A stretch of DNA of 64,000 bases, taken from NCBI GenBank assembly GCA_017409405.1, contig JAFQSU010000007.1, positions 20,767 to 84,766 on the forward strand, in the 5' to 3' direction. The notes under the pieces are model-generated. The model was not told where the DNA came from. It saw nothing but the letters and a program-made list of their open reading frames with translations, and did not search any database. Made by a program: the position numbers and the translations under genes. This document shows, in pieces, positions 2,147 to 50,530 of this stretch; position 1 is the stretch's first letter, and each line of letters starts with the position of its first letter. This DNA is from Oscillospiraceae bacterium (GTDB taxonomy: Bacteria; Bacillota; Clostridia; Oscillospirales; JAAYXM01).

Positions 2147-2893
2147 TTAATATCTTCTTCTCGGGGGACGGGCATCGGGACCTGTGTAGTTTATAACTAC
2201 GCGGCGGTTAGGCTCGACACCGACGGATGATGTGGAGATGTTCTCCATATCCTGAAGTGCGACATGAACGATGTGGCGCTCATAAGCGTTCATCGGCTCA
2301 AGTGCCTTATTTCTCTTATACTTGATTGCCTGATTTGCTGCGCGCTGTGCAAACTTTTCAAGAGATTCTTCTCTCTTTGCACGGTAGTTTTCAGCGTCAA
2401 GCATTATTCTTGTCTTGCCCTCGCTCTTTCTGTTTACGACGAGGTTTGTAAGATGCTGGAGCGCATCAAGGGTTTCACCGCGGCGACCGATTATTCCGCC
2501 GAGATGCTCACCGACGATTTCAAGAGAAAGTGTGCCTTCCTCTCCTTCCTTCTGCTCGACATGGGCATCAGTGCAGATGTAGCTAAGAACCTTTGTAAGA
2601 AACTCTGCCGCATCGCCCTCTGCAGGCTTTCCGGAAGCCTTCTTCTTTCCCTTTACGGGTGCGGCCTCCTTCTTCGGCTTTTCCTTCTTCTCGGGAGCCT
2701 TCGGAACCTCACCGTTCTCGCCGAGAACAGTCATAAGGATTTTTGCCGGAGCTGAACCGATACCGAGAAAGCCGGATTTCGGATTTTCAAGAACTTCAAC
2801 CGTAACGTCTTCACGCTCAACACCGAGTTCAAGAAGACCCTTTTCTATTGCACTGTCTATTGTTTTTGCGCAAATCTCAATGCTGTTTGCCAT
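2147..2893 (-). CDS. jag: Jag/KhpB RNA-binding protein (Jag_N, KH, R3H)
   Basis: N-terminal Jag_N-like MANSIEICAKTIDSAIEKGLLELGV..., Lys-rich linker, C-terminal KH/R3H region (GRRGETLDALQHL..., NAYERHIVH). Conserved position next to yidC. Confidence 0.9.
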   Translation of the reverse strand: MANSIEICAKTIDSAIEKGLLELGVEREDVTVEVLENPKSGFLGIGSAPAKILMTVLGENGEVPKAPEKKEKPKKEAAPVKGKKKASGKPAEGDAAEFLTKVLSYICTDAHVEQKEGEEGTLSLEIVGEHLGGIIGRRGETLDALQHLTNLVVNRKSEGKTRIMLDAENYRAKREESLEKFAQRAANQAIKYKRNKALEPMNAYERHIVHVALQDMENISTSSVGVEPNRRVVINYTGPDARPPRRRY

Positions 2894-2900
2894 TATCTAC

Positions 2901-3761
2901 TCATTCCTCCTGAGATTTATTTGCTTTGTTTTTATAGTATGCTGTGAGAAGCGGCTCCTGTATAGCCGAAAGAATGTTGCTTATAATCCAGTAAAGACCG
3001 AGACCTGCAGGAACCATGAACGCAATCCATACAGACATGAGCGGCATCATAAGATTCATCATGCCGTTTGTTGCGGCTGCCTGCTCTGTCATTGGCTTGC
3101 CCTGACCCTTTCTGATAAACAGATTGGATATCCAAGCCGTAACTCCTGAAAGAACGGGAATTACCCAAAGCGGAGTTATGTACTTGAAGTTCGGGATAGC
3201 GGCAAGGTCAATACCGAGGAAGGTAAAGTCAACGTTTGCGATATTCGGAGCGATTTCTGCAACAATTTCGCGGAAACTTGCGATGTACGATGCAACACTT
3301 ATCTGGAGCATATAGTTTGACCCTGAAGCAACACCCTGCGGAATGCCGGCAGCACCGGCTGTACGGAAAGCATCGGCAAGAGCGTTAATCTGGTCGGGTG
3401 TTATGTCGAAAATATAAGTGAGCGGCTGACGGAGAACGGAATAGAGACCGAACATAATCGGGAGCGTAATGAGCATCGGAAGACATCCGCCGAACATTGA
3501 AACGCCTTCCTTTTTATAAAGCTTCTGTACCTCTATTGAATAGCGTTCTTTGTCGTCCTTGTACTTCTTTTCAAGCTCGGCAAGCTTCGGCTGAATGCGC
3601 TGCATTTCCATCATGCCTTTTTTGCTCTTCATCTGGAAGGGCAGCATAACAAGCTTTGCGAGAACCGTGAAAAGAATAATTGCGAGACCGTAGTTGCCTA
3701 AAAGATAGTAACATTGCTTTAAAAGCCAACCGAACGGCTCAACTATCAATGCAGTATACAT
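2901..3761 (-). CDS. yidC: membrane protein insertase YidC/SpoIIIJ
   Basis: 286 aa, multi-TM, YidC/Oxa1-like sequence. Synteny rnpA-yidD-yidC-jag. Confidence 0.93.
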   Translation of the reverse strand: MYTALIVEPFGWLLKQCYYLLGNYGLAIILFTVLAKLVMLPFQMKSKKGMMEMQRIQPKLAELEKKYKDDKERYSIEVQKLYKKEGVSMFGGCLPMLITLPIMFGLYSVLRQPLTYIFDITPDQINALADAFRTAGAAGIPQGVASGSNYMLQISVASYIASFREIVAEIAPNIANVDFTFLGIDLAAIPNFKYITPLWVIPVLSGVTAWISNLFIRKGQGKPMTEQAAATNGMMNLMMPLMSVWIAFMVPAGLGLYWIISNILSAIQEPLLTAYYKNKANKSQEE

Positions 3762-4839: not shown

Positions 4840-6147
4840 ATGAACAACGCTGCCGATATCTGGAAGAGCGTTTTACGTATTCTCAGAGAACAGTTTGAAA
4901 TGAGTGAAATCACGCTTCAGACGTGGTTTGAAGACATCCGTGCTTCCGAGCTTCGTGACAACATCCTCGTCCTTGTCACTCCTGCGGAATTTAAAAAGAA
5001 TGTCATTCTCACTCATCACACACAAAAAATCAACGATGCTCTTTTTGCTCTGTTTTCCGTTCCGATGAGCTTTGAGCTTTACACAACCGAAGAGTTTGAG
5101 GGCTCTCTTGCGCCGATAATTCCCGACTTTTCAAATTATGAAGAATATTCTTTTGAAAAGTTCATTGTCGGCTCTTCAAACAAGTTTGCCCATGCCGCCG
5201 CAAAGGCCGTTGCCTCCGCTCCCGGCAAAACCTATAATCCGCTTCTCATTCACGGCGGCTCGGGACTTGGCAAAACCCATCTTCTCTACGCCATTGCAGG
5301 CACAATCAAAAAGAACAACCCTAAAGCAAAAATCACTTATATCAAAAGCGAGGATTTCACAAACGAGCTTGTTTCCTCCATCCAGAGCGGCACCTTACCT
5401 CAGTTTCGTGAAAAATACCGAAGCTCAGACATTCTCCTTGTTGACGATATCCAGTTCATAGCCGGCAAGGAAAGCACGCAGGAAGAGTTTTTCCATACCT
5501 TCAATGCCCTTCATGAGGCACACCGTCAGATAGTTCTCACGTCTGACCGTCCGCCCAAGGAAATGGCAAAGCTTGAAGAACGTCTCAAAACCCGTTTTGA
5601 ATGGGGTCTTCTTGCTGATATCGAACCGCCTGATTTTGAAACAAGAATGGCAATCGTCAGCTTAAAGGCACAGCTTATAGGTCTTAACCTTACCACAGAG
5701 CAGAAGGAGCTTATCGCAAATAACGTAACGGCAAATGTCCGTCAGCTTGAGGGCGCCGTACATAAGCTTCTTGCCTACCGTGACCTTCTTCAGGACGTTG
5801 ACGGGCTTCAGGCGGCAGAACGTGCCATACGCGATATTTTCGCCGAAAACCCGTGGATTAACCCGACCCCTGAATTTATTATCAAGGCGGTTGCGAAATA
5901 CTTTGAAATCGACCCCGAAGAAATCATCGGCAAGGACCGCTCTTCAAAAATGGTTGAGCCGAGAAAAATTGCGATGTATATGGTGCGCGACATGACTCAC
6001 GAATCCTATCCCAAGATGGGAAAGGTCTTCAACCGTGACCACGCAACCGTTAAATACTCCGTCGATTCTCTTGAAGAACAGCTCAAGACCGATGCGGTGC
6101 TTCGTGAAAAAATTCAGGACGTTAAAAACTCGGTTCTTACACCGTAG
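4840..6147 (+). CDS. dnaA: chromosomal replication initiator DnaA
   Basis: 435 aa. Walker A GGSGLGKTHL, DDIQF box, C-terminal DNA-binding domain (DHATVKYS). Confidence 0.98.
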   Translation: MNNAADIWKSVLRILREQFEMSEITLQTWFEDIRASELRDNILVLVTPAEFKKNVILTHHTQKINDALFALFSVPMSFELYTTEEFEGSLAPIIPDFSNYEEYSFEKFIVGSSNKFAHAAAKAVASAPGKTYNPLLIHGGSGLGKTHLLYAIAGTIKKNNPKAKITYIKSEDFTNELVSSIQSGTLPQFREKYRSSDILLVDDIQFIAGKESTQEEFFHTFNALHEAHRQIVLTSDRPPKEMAKLEERLKTRFEWGLLADIEPPDFETRMAIVSLKAQLIGLNLTTEQKELIANNVTANVRQLEGAVHKLLAYRDLLQDVDGLQAAERAIRDIFAENPWINPTPEFIIKAVAKYFEIDPEEIIGKDRSSKMVEPRKIAMYMVRDMTHESYPKMGKVFNRDHATVKYSVDSLEEQLKTDAVLREKIQDVKNSVLTP

Positions 6148-6367
6148 AGAAGTTAACAGTTATCCTGTTGAATACACAGTGAAAACCTGTTGAAAAATAT
6201 TTATCAACAAATATCCTGTCAATAACCCAAAATTTATCAACAGCTTCCTTTGGACGGATTTTTCCTTATTTTTCAACGCTTAAACATAGTTTTCCACAAA
6301 TTCCACAGGCTCTACTACTATTACTAAATTATTATTATATTCTTTTTAAATAAAAAATATTCCTGTT
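6148..6367 (+). other. oriC segment: DnaA-box cluster, GC clamp, trinucleotide repeats and AT-rich unwinding element
   Basis: Same-orientation DnaA-box variants: TTATCCTGT 6160, TTATCAACA 6201, ATATCCTGT 6211, TTATCAACA 6234, TTTTCCACA 6290, AATTCCACA 6299. These are followed by GGCTC and then in-phase TAC TAC TAT TAC TAA ATT ATT ATT, with A/T-rich sequence to 6367. Confidence 0.7.
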
Positions 6368-6385
6368 ATGAAAGGAAAGTTGAAA

Positions 6386-7495
6386 ATGAAATTTGTCTGT
6401 GAAAAATCTCACCTCATCTCAGCTATTGCAAAAACCTCATGGGCAGTAGCGGCAAAAAGCTCAGTTCCCGTTATGGAGGGTATCCTCATCAACTGCGGTG
6501 CAGAGCTCACTCTCACGGGATATGACCTCTCTACCGGTATCCGTGTTACTGTTCCTGCCGATATTCAGGAGCAGGGCGTTATCGTAGTAAACGCCAAAAT
6601 CTTTTCCGATATCATAAGACTTCTTCCGGACGAGCCGGTCACGTTTTCTACCGACGAAAACATGTTTGCAACCGTTACATGCAAAAACGTCCGTCATGAT
6701 GTAGTATGCCTTTCGGCAAAGGACTTCCCCTCACTTCCCGATATTGAGAAAAAATATTTCCTTTCTCTCCGCCAGGGAGATCTTAAAAAGATGATTTCTC
6801 AGACTATTTTCGCTATAAGCGGTGATGAATCCAAGCCCGTTCATACAGGCTCTCTCTTTGATGTCAACGGGGATAAGCTCACCGTTGTTTCGGTTGACGG
6901 CTTCCGTCTTTCCTACAGAAACGCAGAAATTGAAAACGAAAGCGAAGAAAAAGAATTTAGCTTCGTTGTTCCCGGTTCAACTCTCAAAGAGGTTGAAAAG
7001 CTCTGCAGTGAGTCTGACGAGCCTGCATCAATCTGCGTCGGTAAAAAGCATATTATCTTCAACCTCGGCGATTCAATGATTATTTCAAGAATCCTTGAGG
7101 GCGACTTCCTGAATTATAAAAACGCTGTTCCTAAAAGCGGTTCATTTAAGGTTCGTGTAAACCGCCGTGACCTTATAACTACCATTGAGCGTGTTTCCAT
7201 TCTCATAAGCGAAAGAATAAAAAACCCGATTCATTTAAACTTTACCGAAAAAACTCTTTTCATAAGCTGTCGCACACCTGTCGGCAGCTCAAAGGATGAA
7301 TGTGCCCTTTTAAACCGCGGAGAAACTCTTGAAATCGGCTTTAACCACAAATACATTCTCGATGCTCTTCGCGCATGTCCCGATGATGAGGTTGATCTTG
7401 AGCTTAACACCCACGTTGCTCCGATTGTCATAACTCCTCCCGAGGGCAGTGACTATCTCCACCTTATTCTTCCGGTCCGTTTAAAGGCAGAATAA
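6386..7495 (+). CDS. dnaN: DNA polymerase III beta sliding clamp
   Basis: ORF 6368..7495 trimmed to the ATG at 6386 (MKFVCEK...) after GAAAGGAAAG. Typical three-domain length of 369 aa. Confidence 0.95.
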   Translation: MKFVCEKSHLISAIAKTSWAVAAKSSVPVMEGILINCGAELTLTGYDLSTGIRVTVPADIQEQGVIVVNAKIFSDIIRLLPDEPVTFSTDENMFATVTCKNVRHDVVCLSAKDFPSLPDIEKKYFLSLRQGDLKKMISQTIFAISGDESKPVHTGSLFDVNGDKLTVVSVDGFRLSYRNAEIENESEEKEFSFVVPGSTLKEVEKLCSESDEPASICVGKKHIIFNLGDSMIISRILEGDFLNYKNAVPKSGSFKVRVNRRDLITTIERVSILISERIKNPIHLNFTEKTLFISCRTPVGSSKDECALLNRGETLEIGFNHKYILDALRACPDDEVDLELNTHVAPIVITPPEGSDYLHLILPVRLKAE

Positions 7496-47699: not shown

Positions 47700-48398
47700 A
47701 TGGGAAAAGACGTAATTGTAGCATGCGATTTTAAAAGCGCAGAGGATACCTTTGCTTTTCTTGACAAATTCACGGGAAGAAAGCCGTTTGTCAAAATCGG
47801 TATGGAGCTTTTTTATGCCGAGGGACCGAGCATTGTCCGTGAGATAAAGGCGCGCGGACACAAGATTTTCCTCGACCTGAAGCTTCACGATATCCCGAAC
47901 ACCGTAAAAAAGGCAATGTCGGTGCTCAGAAATCTTGACGTTGACATTACAAACCTGCATGCCGCAGGCACAAAGAGTATGATGGAGGCGGCAATCGAGG
48001 GACTCACCCGTCCCGACGGCACACGTCCGCTTCTTATTGCCGTAACACAGCTTACCTCAACGGACCAGGAAGCGATGGAGCGCGACCTGCTTATAAAAGA
48101 GCCGATTGACAAGGTTGTAATGCATTATGCAAAGACTGCAAAGGATGCAGGTCTTGACGGTGTTGTATGCTCACCGCTTGAAGCTGAGAAGGTACACGAT
48201 ACATGCGGCAAAACATTTCTTACGGTTACCCCCGGAGTCCGCTTTGCCGACGGTGATATCGGTGACCAGAAGCGTGTTATGACACCTGCCGAGGCAAAGA
48301 AAATCGGTTCTGACTATATAGTTGTCGGACGTCCGATAACCGCGGCGGATGACCCCGTTGCGGCATACGAGAGATGTGTCAGTGACTTTGTCGATTAA
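47700..48398 (+). CDS. pyrF: orotidine 5'-phosphate decarboxylase
   Basis: 232 aa. Motifs DLKLHDIPNT and VVGRPIT. Confidence 0.96.
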   Translation: MGKDVIVACDFKSAEDTFAFLDKFTGRKPFVKIGMELFYAEGPSIVREIKARGHKIFLDLKLHDIPNTVKKAMSVLRNLDVDITNLHAAGTKSMMEAAIEGLTRPDGTRPLLIAVTQLTSTDQEAMERDLLIKEPIDKVVMHYAKTAKDAGLDGVVCSPLEAEKVHDTCGKTFLTVTPGVRFADGDIGDQKRVMTPAEAKKIGSDYIVVGRPITAADDPVAAYERCVSDFVD

Positions 48399-48414
48399 AC
48401 CGACAAAGTGAACG

Positions 48415-48511
48415 CTGTCACCCTGAGCTTGTCGAAGGGTCCCCTACGGGTGAGGTAGAGATTCTTCGACTGCGCCTGACACGTTGTGTCAGGCTTCGCT
48501 CAGAATGACAG
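48415..48511. repeat. 97-bp palindromic element (family C)
   Basis: TIRs CTGTCACCCTGAGC / GCTCAGAATGACAG. Nested GTCGAAG/CTTCGAC and a GCCTGACAC-gtt-GTGTCAGGC hairpin. A half copy lies at 60119-60172. Confidence 0.8.
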
Positions 48512-48548
48512 ATTGAAAAAGGTTTCAATATATTAAGGAGGAATAATC

Positions 48549-49184
48549 ATGCAAAAGCTTATTGCTAAGGATTTACTTAAAATAAAGGCGGTTTTCTTCC
48601 GTCCGGACGAGCCGTTCACATGGGCAAGCGGTATCAAAAGCCCTGTTTACTGCGATAACCGCCTCACTCTTACCGCACCCGAGGTAAGAAACGATGTCGA
48701 AAACGGTCTTGTTTCACTTATCCGTGAACATTACCCCGAAGCAGAAGTGCTTATGGGCACATCAACTGCAGGTATTGCTCACGCCGCTATCTGCGGTCAC
48801 ATCATGGGTCTTCCGATGGGTTATGTCCGTTCCGGTGCAAAGGACCACGGCAGAAACAATCAGATAGAGGGTCGCCTTCTTTCCGGTCAGAAGGTCGTTG
48901 TTGTCGAAGACCTCATCTCCACGGGCGGAAGCTGTATCGAGGTTGTAAATGTTCTCCGTGAGGCAGGTGCAGAGGTTTTAGGCATCGTCAGCATCTTTAC
49001 CTACGGCATGCAGAAGGGTCTTGACCGTCTTGCGGCGGCAGAGGTCAAAAACGTCTCTCTCACAAACTTTGACGTTATTGCCGAAGTTGCGGCAGAAGAA
49101 AAGTATATTAAGCCCGAGGACGTTGCACGTCTTATAAAGTTCCGCAACAATCCGTCGGATGAGAGCTGGATAGCAAACGCATAA
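48549..49184 (+). CDS. pyrE: orotate phosphoribosyltransferase
   Basis: 211 aa. PRPP-binding motif VVVVEDLISTGGS. Confidence 0.96.
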   Translation: MQKLIAKDLLKIKAVFFRPDEPFTWASGIKSPVYCDNRLTLTAPEVRNDVENGLVSLIREHYPEAEVLMGTSTAGIAHAAICGHIMGLPMGYVRSGAKDHGRNNQIEGRLLSGQKVVVVEDLISTGGSCIEVVNVLREAGAEVLGIVSIFTYGMQKGLDRLAAAEVKNVSLTNFDVIAEVAAEEKYIKPEDVARLIKFRNNPSDESWIANA

Positions 49185-49194
49185 GCGTTTGCAG

Positions 49195-49371
49195 TTATAT
49201 AAATCCCAAAAGGGATTTGTGATATGCCCTTCGGGCGTGATATATTGCTTCGCAATGTGATATGCCTTCGGGCGTGAGGGGATTTATATAATATCACTTG
49301 ATGCGAAAGCATCAAATATCACAATTCACGAAGTGAATTATATCACATCGAGCGAAAGCGAGATATATCAC
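49195..49371. repeat. array of seven 7-mer-anchored mini-hairpins (3 x GTGATAT, then 4 x ATATCAC)
   Basis: GTGATAT at 49219, 49237 and 49257. ATATCAC at 49291, 49316, 49340 and 49365 (24-25-bp period). Each interval is its own small hairpin. Outer inverted repeat TATATAAATCCC (49195) / GGGGATTTATATA (49278). Confidence 0.85.
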
Positions 49372-49404
49372 TTTGATCAGTTGGCTTATAAAGGAGATAA
49401 AGAT

Positions 49405-50487
49405 ATGAGAAGTCTTATAGATATACTTGACCTTACGGTAGAAGAAATTGAAGAGCTTATGCACGTTGCATGCGACATCATCGCAAATCCGTGGAAGTAT
49501 TCGGAAATGTGCCGCGGCAAAAAGCTTGCAACACTCTTCTTTGAGCCGTCCACACGCACACGCCTGTCCTTTGAGGCGGCTATGCTTGAGCTTGGCGGAA
49601 GTGTGCTCGGCTTTTCCGAAGCATCGACCTCATCTGCCGCAAAGGGCGAGAGTGTTGCCGATACCGCAAAGGTCATGAGCTCATATTGCGACATCATCGC
49701 AATGCGCCACCCCAAGGAGGGCGCACCGTATGTTGCGGCAAGAAACGCAACAGTCCCCGTCATCAATGGCGGTGACGGCGGTCACTGCCACCCCACACAG
49801 ACACTTACAGACCTTCTCACGATATACCGTGAAAAGGGGCATCTTGATAACATAACCGTGGGATTTTGCGGAGACCTCAAATTCGGCAGAACCGTACATT
49901 CTCTTATTCATGCGCTTTCGAGATATGCAGGGATAAAGGTTATTCTCATCTCCCCCGAGGAGCTCAAGGTTCCGAGCTATGTCAAAAAGGAAAACGCTTT
50001 CGAGTATGAGGAAACAACCTCGCTTGAAGAAGCTATGCCGAAGCTCGACGTCCTTTATATGACACGCATCCAGAAGGAACGCTTTGAAACCGATGCCGAA
50101 TACGAAAGATTAAAGGACAGCTACATACTCACTCCCGAAAAGCTCGTTTCCGCAAAGAGTGATATGTGTATTCTCCACCCCCTGCCGAGAGTAAACGAAA
50201 TCAGCGTTGCCGTTGACTCCGACCCCCGTGCATGCTACTTCAGACAGGTTGCAAACGGAAAGTATATCCGTATGGCACTCATCTTAAAGCTTCTTGAAGA
50301 GGCAAGACGTGACGGAAACTCCGCACTTGAAGACGAAGGCTTTATCAAGGGCGAGCACCGTTGCTTTAATCCGAGATGCATAACCTCGTGCGAGCAGGAA
50401 ATTGAGCATATGTTCAAGGTTTCGCATTCCGGCGCACACCGCTGCGTATATTGCGAAGCAAAGGCGCGTAATCTTGATAATAATTAA
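49405..50487 (+). CDS. pyrB: aspartate carbamoyltransferase catalytic chain fused to a PyrI-type zinc domain
   Basis: Track ORF (49333) trimmed to [10 protein letters not shown] after AAGGAG. STRTR, HPTQ and HPLP motifs. About 55 extra C-terminal aa with CFNPRC...x21...CVYC. Confidence 0.9.
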
Positions 50488-50496
50488 ATATGTACG

Positions 50497-50530
50497 AAAA
50501 GGCCGATGTGTATTGCATCGGCTTTTTTTG
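50497..50530 (+). terminator. pyr operon terminator
   Basis: GCCGATG-tgtattg-CATCGGC followed by TTTTTTT. Confidence 0.85.

Follow-up and report, generated by a model that had tools for sequence, protein, structure and literature searches.

An array of heptamer-anchored hairpins in a pyrE-pyrB spacer belongs to the orphan Gut-1 family

The array of short hairpins that separates pyrE from pyrB in the window analysed here, a 64-kb stretch of DNA from an Oscillospiraceae genome, is a new instance of Gut-1, a family known since 2010 and still an orphan. It is not a pyrimidine-specific regulator, and that it lies in the pyr operon is incidental. In the explanation that we favour, and consider moderately probable, the block is a solo, passenger copy of Gut-1, the cis element of a tRNA-flank cassette, and was acquired horizontally. 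Gut-1 itself would be the non-coding, structure-constrained part of a small cassette family of gut Oscillospirales and Christensenellales, with a look-alike in Akkermansia. The most useful outcome of the analysis is a context for Gut-1, comprising its full architecture, its status as an accessory and exchangeable block, its position at tRNA ends and its association with an Avd-like gene.

Structure of the pyrE-pyrB spacer

An earlier, sequence-only reading of this region had described three GTGATAT heptamers (F; plus strand, 49219, 49237 and 49257) followed by four copies of the complementary ATATCAC (R; 49291, 49316, 49340 and 49365), and all seven positions hold. The heptamer occurs 19 times in the 64-kb window, against 5.3 +/- 2.35 in shuffled sequence (none of 100 shuffles reaches 19), and seven of the 19 copies are packed within 153 nt. 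Twelve copies of GTGATAT lie outside 49219-49371 (e.g. 47563, 47620, 48253, 50159 and 50566), where about five are expected for the whole window; several of them fall within pyr genes and may reflect codon or composition bias. Within the array the heptamers are spaced 18-25 bp from centre to centre, and every interval between them is, as had been proposed, a hairpin, formed by a palindrome, perfect or nearly so, that runs up to the heptamers with zero linker (gcccTTCgggc, attgcTTCgcaat and gccTTCGggc in the left half; ttgatgcGAAAgcatcaa, aattcacGAAgtgaatt and atcgagcGAAAgcgagat in the right half). The last of these, hpC, had been described as a GC core; the hairpin is real, and its stem is more than a core, containing a tandem G.A.

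The whole array spans 49192-49373, and its parts are all given here for the plus strand. Directly 5' of it lies P0, an 8-bp hairpin (GCAAACGC-ATAA-GCGTTTGC, 49173-49192) with no U-tract after it. The left module (49192-49268) opens with CAGTTATAT and contains hp0 (49201-49218), F1 (49219-49225), hp1 (49226-49236), F2 (49237-49243), hp2 (49244-49256) and F3 (49257-49263). It leads into hp3 (GCC-TTCG-GGC, 49264-49273), a degenerate heptamer GTGAG (49274-49278) and an inner repeat, GGGATTTATATA (49279-49290). The right module (49291-49371) is composed of R1 (49291-49297), hpA (49298-49315), R2 (49316-49322), hpB (49323-49339), R3 (49340-49346), hpC (49347-49364, with the tandem G.A and a GAAA loop) and R4 (49365-49371). 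The inner repeat pairs with TATATAAATCCC at 49196-49207; the outer inverted repeat noticed earlier thus exists, with both arms starting one position later than first given. Its AAATCCC has a second, local partner in GGGATTT at 49212-49218. When folded, the 226-nt region surpasses shuffled sequence on both strands (z = -4.2 and -5.6), in agreement with the claim of a structured spacer. On the minus strand, hp0 (49199-49217) weakly resembles CRISPR-DR25, a model of CRISPR direct repeats (22 bits, E = 0.27), and this is probably the generic resemblance of a hairpin with an AT tail.

The pyrE gene (48549-49184) terminates with a TAA (49182-49184) in the P0 loop, and pyrB (49405-50487, 360 aa) starts at the ATG at 49405, behind the ribosome-binding site AAAGGAG (49390-49407 with the start codon, plus strand). 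The same ATG is used in relatives with a 0-41 bp spacer, including those with an empty site, so that the open reading frame from the GTG at 49333 is, as had been suspected, a spurious 24-codon extension of pyrB produced by the array. A stop codon within the P0 loop was considered as a general rule and dropped, being found in pyrE and in locus L087 alone. The last ~45 residues of PyrB match the C-terminal zinc domain of the regulatory subunit of ATCase (PyrI_C), and PyrB homologues carry the same Pfam pair; by this domain content, the protein is therefore read as a catalytic chain fused to a regulatory-subunit fragment.

The array as a member of Gut-1

The left half of the array matches Rfam family RF01706 (Gut-1) at 67.4 bits, against a gathering threshold of 50, over model positions 1-77 of 77 (49192-49268, plus strand), and Gut-1 is the sole Rfam family above threshold in the 64-kb window. 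On the minus strand the right half also matches the model, at a sub-threshold 45 bits. Across elements, RF01706 exceeds its threshold on the left arm of every canonical copy tested, and the three hairpins joined by GUGAWAU linkers (hp0-hp2) are 99% paired, with double changes in 15 of 16 pairs over 44 elements. Weinberg et al. (2010; PMC2864571) based their description of the family on 43 sequences of human-gut metagenomes. The 77-nt motif was listed as an sRNA, confined to the human gut and presented without context; it was rated "RNA: Y, cis-reg: n" on the basis of covariation, and no function was proposed. The flanks printed in that alignment already hold the AUAUCAC-hairpin half and the outer repeat (PMC2864571), and the 77-nt motif is therefore the left module of a larger element, to which the Rfam model could be extended. 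A literature search found no later papers on Gut-1. The array at the pyrE-pyrB junction is a member of a family found at dozens of unrelated loci, and the search of relatives that had been suggested did yield dispersed hairpin arrays of the GTGATAT type.

Presence, absence and exchange at the pyr locus

In L126 the flanks are ~99.7% identical to those of the window through pyrE and pyrB, and the spacer is a 41-bp empty site with no array; its pyrE ends in SWIK* as against SWIANA* in the window. The short ancestral type of spacer is also present in L122 and L124, pyrE and pyrB overlap in L121, and, in general, most relatives with the same operon lack the element and have spacers of 0-41 bp. Conversely, L129, L130 and L131 have flanks that are only ~84% identical and carry the same element. 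Across the block 49149-49385 (not assigned to a strand), 235 of 237 nt are the same as in L131/L129, with one unit missing in L129. This level of identity amid ~84% flanks indicates that the block moved between species recently. L127 has a further copy, built to the same plan, whose heptamers are TCGATAT/ATATCGA and whose P0 carries a compensatory change (gcaaaGgc/gcCtttgc).

P0 is part of the block that is missing at the empty site. In the filled allele, 31 nt of the ancestral spacer have given way to the block, the pyrE stop codon among them, and the junctions show GGATA| on the left and a |GG microhomology on the right, with no target duplication. The combination of terminal inverted repeats, target-site duplication and clean empty site that defines a MITE is thus not seen, and the junctions look like the product of illegitimate or short-homology recombination, less like transposition. 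That the insertion is not clean, lacks a target duplication and has no adjacent recombinase or transposase counts against the explanation we favour. A second empty site, sought through the His_Phos gene of L059, was not found, upstream synteny not being kept there. In L124 an unrelated 180-bp insert (3134-3313) occupies the same spacer, opening with the ancestral tttcgcgaaagacagg and continuing with a hairpin and then a T-run; inserts therefore seem to be acquired readily at this junction.

These observations bear directly on the notion that the array is a built-in signal of the pyr operon, which the sequence-only reading had entertained. A cis-regulatory or processing RNA specific to this operon, such as an attenuator, a site for RNase cleavage or a signal for an internal pyrB start, would fit an element that lies inside the operon on the coding strand, is strongly structured and is kept at the locus in L127 and L129-L131. 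We nevertheless regard it as extremely improbable. The ~99.7% identical strain and most relatives do without the element, and the empty allele largely refutes a built-in role; absence from close relatives with the same operon was one of several conditions that the reading itself had set for its refutation. The same element recurs at dozens of unrelated loci, an Rfam search of 48000-50500 up to E = 10 gives no match of the PyrR type or to another known regulatory RNA, and P0 has no U-tract, hence no terminator to modulate. By the same observations the array is not a PyrR attenuator or pyr leader, being absent from conspecific and related operons alike. The reading was correct in placing the array inside the pyr operon just before pyrB; the functional tie to the operon is not supported, the element being dispersed and optional. 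A false lead is thereby removed, since the structure is an accessory insert, present or absent within one species, and no pyrimidine control element.

Returning to the favoured explanation, the window copy would have entered the pyrE-pyrB spacer by horizontal exchange, replacing 31 nt and supplying a new stop codon in the P0 loop. It would be tolerated there because P0 lacks a U-tract, so that transcription presumably runs on into pyrB, whose ribosome-binding site is intact. The pyr operon would thus carry the element as a passenger, whose effect there, if any, would be a secondary one on the processing or stability of the mRNA.

Architecture and conservation of the full element

Among species-representative genomes, a pattern scan listed 120 loci, the majority in metagenome-assembled genomes (MAGs) of gut and rumen Clostridia. 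A common plan can be read from 5' to 3': P0; CAACGAAAT or CAGTTATAT; hp0-F-hp1-F-hp2-F-hp3; a degenerate GTGAG; a repeat of the 3' strand of hp0, followed by ATWTC; R-hpA-R-hpB-R-hpC-R; and T. The conserved element amounts to ~180 nt, or ~200 nt counting P0. An equivalent of P0 precedes every element, usually as a terminator made of A-run, stem and T-run. Among ~34 listed copies read by eye, ~60% have both A and T runs (a bidirectional terminator), ~15% have the T-run only and ~25% have neither; the T-run is present at the ends of transcription units and absent in the pyr copy and several others. A covariance model of the whole element recovers at least 53 elements at 55-210 bits. Elements that are matched on both strands score no more than 68 bits on the opposite strand, and the element is therefore a pseudo-dyad, not a true palindrome.

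The covariation of the hairpins is marked. In a structural alignment of 44 elements, the seven array hairpins are 95.2% paired and show compensatory changes in 39 of 40 pairs, a figure that none of 500 shuffles reaches and from which slid controls likewise fall far short. In the same alignment the outer repeat reaches 86% pairing, where shuffles have 66%, and shows 106 double-change cells. The right module is the best-conserved part of the family. Complementarity between F and R is kept through five variants (GTGAAAT/ATTTCAC, GTGATAT/ATATCAC, TCGATAT/ATATCGA, ATGAAAT/ATTTCAT and, in Akkermansia, GTTATAT/ATATAAC), and different variants are mixed on single contigs in L050, L087 and L283. There are exceptions: in L043 all F copies read GTTATAT and R is still ATATCAC, and F/R complementarity or the unity of the modules breaks down in L087 copy 2, L013 and L105.

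Several loci carry clustered copies (L013, L050, L059, L087, L105 and L120). Among these, L013 (3322-3851), L105 (40-342) and L087 (2768-2905) display mosaic variants. In one form, elements in tandem have left heptamers of the ATGATGC type and a terminator inside; in another, additional hairpins part the left module from the right; a third consists of the left module alone, which the outer repeat closes. In the Akkermansia MAG of L007, tandem hairpin-heptamer arrays (5780-6900 and 2250-3440) flank a PF05635 gene and are of two types, GTGATAT/GTTATAT ... ATATAAC and GTGAAAT ... GAGATTGC; the design therefore reaches beyond the Firmicutes. A metagenome scan for the exact core of the window copy, GGATTTATATAATATCAC, gave chance matches only, plasmid and phage sequences yielded no BLAST match to the element, and the pattern scan of a viral collection contained one true element (L146) among the 120 matches listed.

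Attachment to tRNA and rRNA ends

Of the 46 elements with enough upstream sequence, 15 follow a tRNA gene of the same strand at a distance of 30-43 nt, and P0 fills the gap; 14 were counted in the census and L036, where the model match overlaps a tRNA-Leu gene, was added as the fifteenth. In the census these loci have 26 tRNA genes, and the anticodons at linked tRNAs cover Asn, Ala, Arg, Thr, Tyr, Gln, Leu, Trp, Gly, Glu, Pro and Ser. In L113 and L059, an element is located at the end of an rRNA operon. The habitual site of the cassette would be one nucleotide past the CCA end of a tRNA, or the end of an rRNA operon, and gene-less solo arrays would be common. Neither solo nor cassette copies have a transposase, integrase or recombinase beside them in the flanks, where the neighbours are ordinary genes.

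Two side observations concern mobility at these ends. In L276, L286, L294 and L297-L303 (~1-1230), differing mobile-looking genes (large serine recombinases, DUF2800/PDDEXK, DUF6273 and an IS1595 transposase beside an aminoglycoside-resistance-like gene) end just before the P0 A-run of one and the same cassette, and the tRNA-Pro/P0 junction looks like an integration hot spot. In L120 (5190-5260), a tRNA-like 3' fragment (…GGGTTCGAATCCC…) with no ARAGORN call follows the second Gut-1 copy and may be what is left of an attachment site.

Pairing with an Avd-like gene

At no fewer than nine of ~53 loci, a gene for a four-helix-bundle (4HB) protein of 115-119 aa lies 28-57 nt 3' of R4 on the same strand. 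It belongs to TIGR02436 ("four helix bundle protein") / PF05635 ("23S rRNA intervening sequence protein"), a family linked to Avd, a protein of diversity-generating retroelements (DGRs) (PMC10053308). The gene has its own extended -10 promoter, at whose -35 region the array ends, and is followed by a terminator in L014, L029, L070 and L109. A complete cassette would accordingly be ordered as P0 terminator, four F-joined hairpins, inner repeat, three hairpins with four R copies, promoter and Avd-like gene. Approached from the protein, the association has no exception: three exact 4HB proteins in public assemblies have a Gut-1 element (181-183 bits) 50 nt upstream in 28 of 28 places, which represent only two or three independent loci, and both 4HB loci of the viral collection have an element upstream, at 25 nt (L304) and about 50-52 nt. 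In Akkermansia the 4HB gene also sits between the analogous arrays. By contrast with these hairpin arrays, a PF05635 gene in L037 (1036-1500) is flanked by simple tandem repeats (attagaaatgagaa, ATTTCAC-attgctc units).

Downstream of tRNA-Pro in L277, of tRNA-Arg in L283 and of an inserted recombinase-bearing element in L276 (apparently itself at a tRNA-Pro locus), the upstream sequences are unrelated, and identity is 100% from the P0 A-run, one base past the tRNA CCA, for ~1 kb through the array, the promoter, the 4HB gene and a MazG-like gene, with divergence beyond. L283 has a second Gut-1 element, of another heptamer type, after the cassette. The clade of the protein tracks the heptamer type, with seven loci for ATTTCAC and three for ATATCAC, a link that involves two clades only and cannot be separated from co-inheritance.

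In the window, tblastn detects no 4HB gene anywhere in the 64 kb, which weighs against the explanation that we favour, and what follows the array is pyrB, not a TIGR02436/PF05635 gene within ~60 nt; the window copy is therefore a solo array. At the loci that do have an Avd-like gene, no reverse transcriptase is seen among the neighbouring ORFs read by eye or the precomputed Pfam calls of the looked-up places; of the parts of a DGR, these show the Avd-like gene alone.

Fold, strand and partner

A ladder in which the hairpins flank 7-bp F:R rungs is lower in energy than the hairpins alone in 41 of 44 elements, and a branched ladder of this kind, whose rungs join the hairpins into stacked four-way junctions, is plausible in these computed folds. 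The ladder put forward in the sequence-only reading thus remains plausible in view of its energy and of the complementary heptamers of the five variants; it is not obligatory, because left-only or split elements and elements with non-complementary heptamers exist. Minimum free energy structures use alternative pairings specific to the window, and energy does not separate the ladder from the outer stem or from hairpins alone.

With regard to the strand, one right-arm hairpin has a conserved tandem G.A in a ratio of 46 G.A to 2 C.T, and the orientation of the element relative to its neighbours is fixed; both speak for the top strand. Two other markers were set aside: the balance of G.T and A.C (28 vs 13 in the model-fitted alignment, 6 vs 4 by palindrome parsing) gives no decision, and stable RNA tetraloops do not discriminate, the loops falling into mirror classes (cTTCg, cTGCg and cTACg, i.e. 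cTNCg, on the left; cGAAg, cGCAg, cGAAAg and cGTTAg, i.e. cGNAg/cGNNAg, on the right). The earlier description of loops mirrored between the halves, and of a dyad of heptamer-anchored hairpins, stands, and these mirror classes make a constraint at the DNA level possible. G.U pairs make up only ~1.8% of stem cells, which is low for a functional RNA and counts against a simple RNA reading. Moreover, most arrays lie between a strong terminator and the next promoter, and little RNA would be expected from them. Matches to a promoter inside the array were of weak consensus only and were rejected. Chi or uptake sequences, CRP or cre half-sites, hammerhead and K-turn were likewise dropped on inspection of the sequence, their defining spacing or core being missing.

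The rating of Gut-1 as an RNA that is not cis-regulatory (PMC2864571) would suit an independent, trans-acting small RNA gene of the Rfam "sRNA" type, for instance a protein sponge presenting single-stranded heptamers between its hairpins. The strong hairpin covariation, the strand-specific tandem G.A and the terminators that follow some copies (L059, L120a and L087) agree with it, but the T-run of P0 abuts the element, with no promoter found between them and no room for one, the heptamers differ among elements on a single contig and provide no single binding motif, G.U pairs are scarce and the pyr copy is embedded in an mRNA. We consider such a gene distinctly unlikely. Recognition as double-stranded DNA, with the heptamers as protein-binding sites of an operator, iteron, centromere-like or uptake-like array, perhaps for the adjacent 4HB protein, is decidedly improbable. 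F and R are then one 7-bp site in two orientations, their complementarity is automatic and the identity of sites within an element is explained, and so might be the ending of arrays at the -35 region of the 4HB promoter and the correlation of protein clade with heptamer. Like the iteron-like block of the sequence-only reading, however, it leaves the covarying zero-linker palindromes unexplained, and it is at odds with the variable 18-25 bp spacing, with the mismatched GTTATAT and ATATCAC of L043 and with the strand-specific G.A.

In the explanation that we favour, the array would act as a single strand that is folded, the likeliest candidates being the transcript of the top strand and a displaced top DNA strand, with its hairpins stacked on the 7-bp F:R rungs. 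Our best guess for its partner is the Avd-like 4HB protein, as a putative binder that would recognise the folded strand. More generally, and as a tentative idea that we rate as possible but rather doubtful, Gut-1 arrays and stand-alone Avd-like proteins might form a two-component system, in which the cognate protein reads a branched RNA or single-stranded DNA by its shape and its element-specific heptamer and the pair installs itself after tRNA CCA or rRNA ends, solo arrays being extra targets or relics.

Comparison with known systems

With the published Gut-1 motif the window array shares a left half above threshold, three hairpins joined by GUGAWAU and a habitat in gut Clostridia. It differs in that the motif here makes up one half of a ~180-nt element, which also has a right arm that is conserved and a 5' terminator hairpin, is linked to tRNA genes and an Avd-like gene, and extends to MAGs from animal guts.

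The REP/BIME elements of enterobacteria and the BOX elements of pneumococcus are dispersed intergenic mosaics of short palindromic units, whose stems are conserved in sequence. Gut-1 resembles them in having palindromic units in both orientations, a position at the 3' ends of transcription units and a variable number of internal modules, and a selfish intergenic repeat of the REP, BIME, BOX or MITE type, devoid of host function and with hairpins that serve propagation only, would account for its clustered multi-copy distribution, its presence/absence polymorphism and cross-species identity, the variation in unit number, the left-only and right-only modules and the nested inverted repeats. We deem this unlikely. 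There is neither a target-site duplication nor a clean excision footprint, no transposase or RAYT-like gene is found nearby in the flanks read, and, unlike repeats that are similar by descent, Gut-1 copies differ in their stems and keep pairing, with conservation residing in the 7-nt junctions. The tight linkage to tRNA ends and to one gene family is a further difference.

Integron attC sites combine complementary 7-nt core sites with palindromes conserved in structure, are recognised as a folded single strand and accompany gene cassettes. A folded single-stranded recombination site of this kind, moving cassettes into tRNA 3' flanks, would have in its favour the conserved complementary heptamers, the structure-over-sequence palindromes, a GTGAAAT/ATTTCAC that by our own reading of the consensus is one base off GTTRRRY/RYYYAAC (6/7), the element-gene(s)-element layouts of L120, L059 and L283 and the identical cassette behind two different tRNAs. 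The c(GNA)g and GCGAAAGC loops, which form stable DNA mini-hairpins, may be added to this list. No IntI or other integrase or recombinase is consistently present in the flanks, however, the layout is one of 4+4 sites, not 2+2, the cassettes carry their own promoters and the pyr junctions resemble illegitimate recombination, all of which renders an attC-like site very improbable.

In type III toxin-antitoxin systems (ToxIN), short RNA repeats directly precede a small protein gene and the locus contains a terminator. The order of repeat array and small protein gene, with a terminator in the locus, is similar in Gut-1, whose repeats are not identical units, whose terminator precedes the array and whose protein is no ToxN-type RNase. 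The Avd protein of DGRs (PF22296/PF05635) is a small homologue with the same four-helix bundle, and in DGRs it acts together with a structured RNA; the difference here is that no reverse transcriptase, template or variable repeat occurs in the Gut-1 flanks read.

The 23S rRNA intervening sequences of Leptospira and Coxiella encode an S23p/PF05635 protein. They offer the same protein family beside a structured inverted-repeat element of stable-RNA operons, and differ in lying inside the 23S rRNA with the ORF between the repeats, whereas the Gut-1 array is found behind tRNA and rRNA operons and the gene comes after the array with its own promoter. The architecture, the placement at tRNA ends, the exchange between species and the near-obligate pairing with an Avd-like gene provide testable handles on two orphan families, Gut-1 and the TIGR02436/PF05635 proteins outside DGRs. 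If the two-component system were true, an orphan RNA motif and the large orphan PF05635 family would both acquire a function, and a link to the 23S intervening sequences besides.
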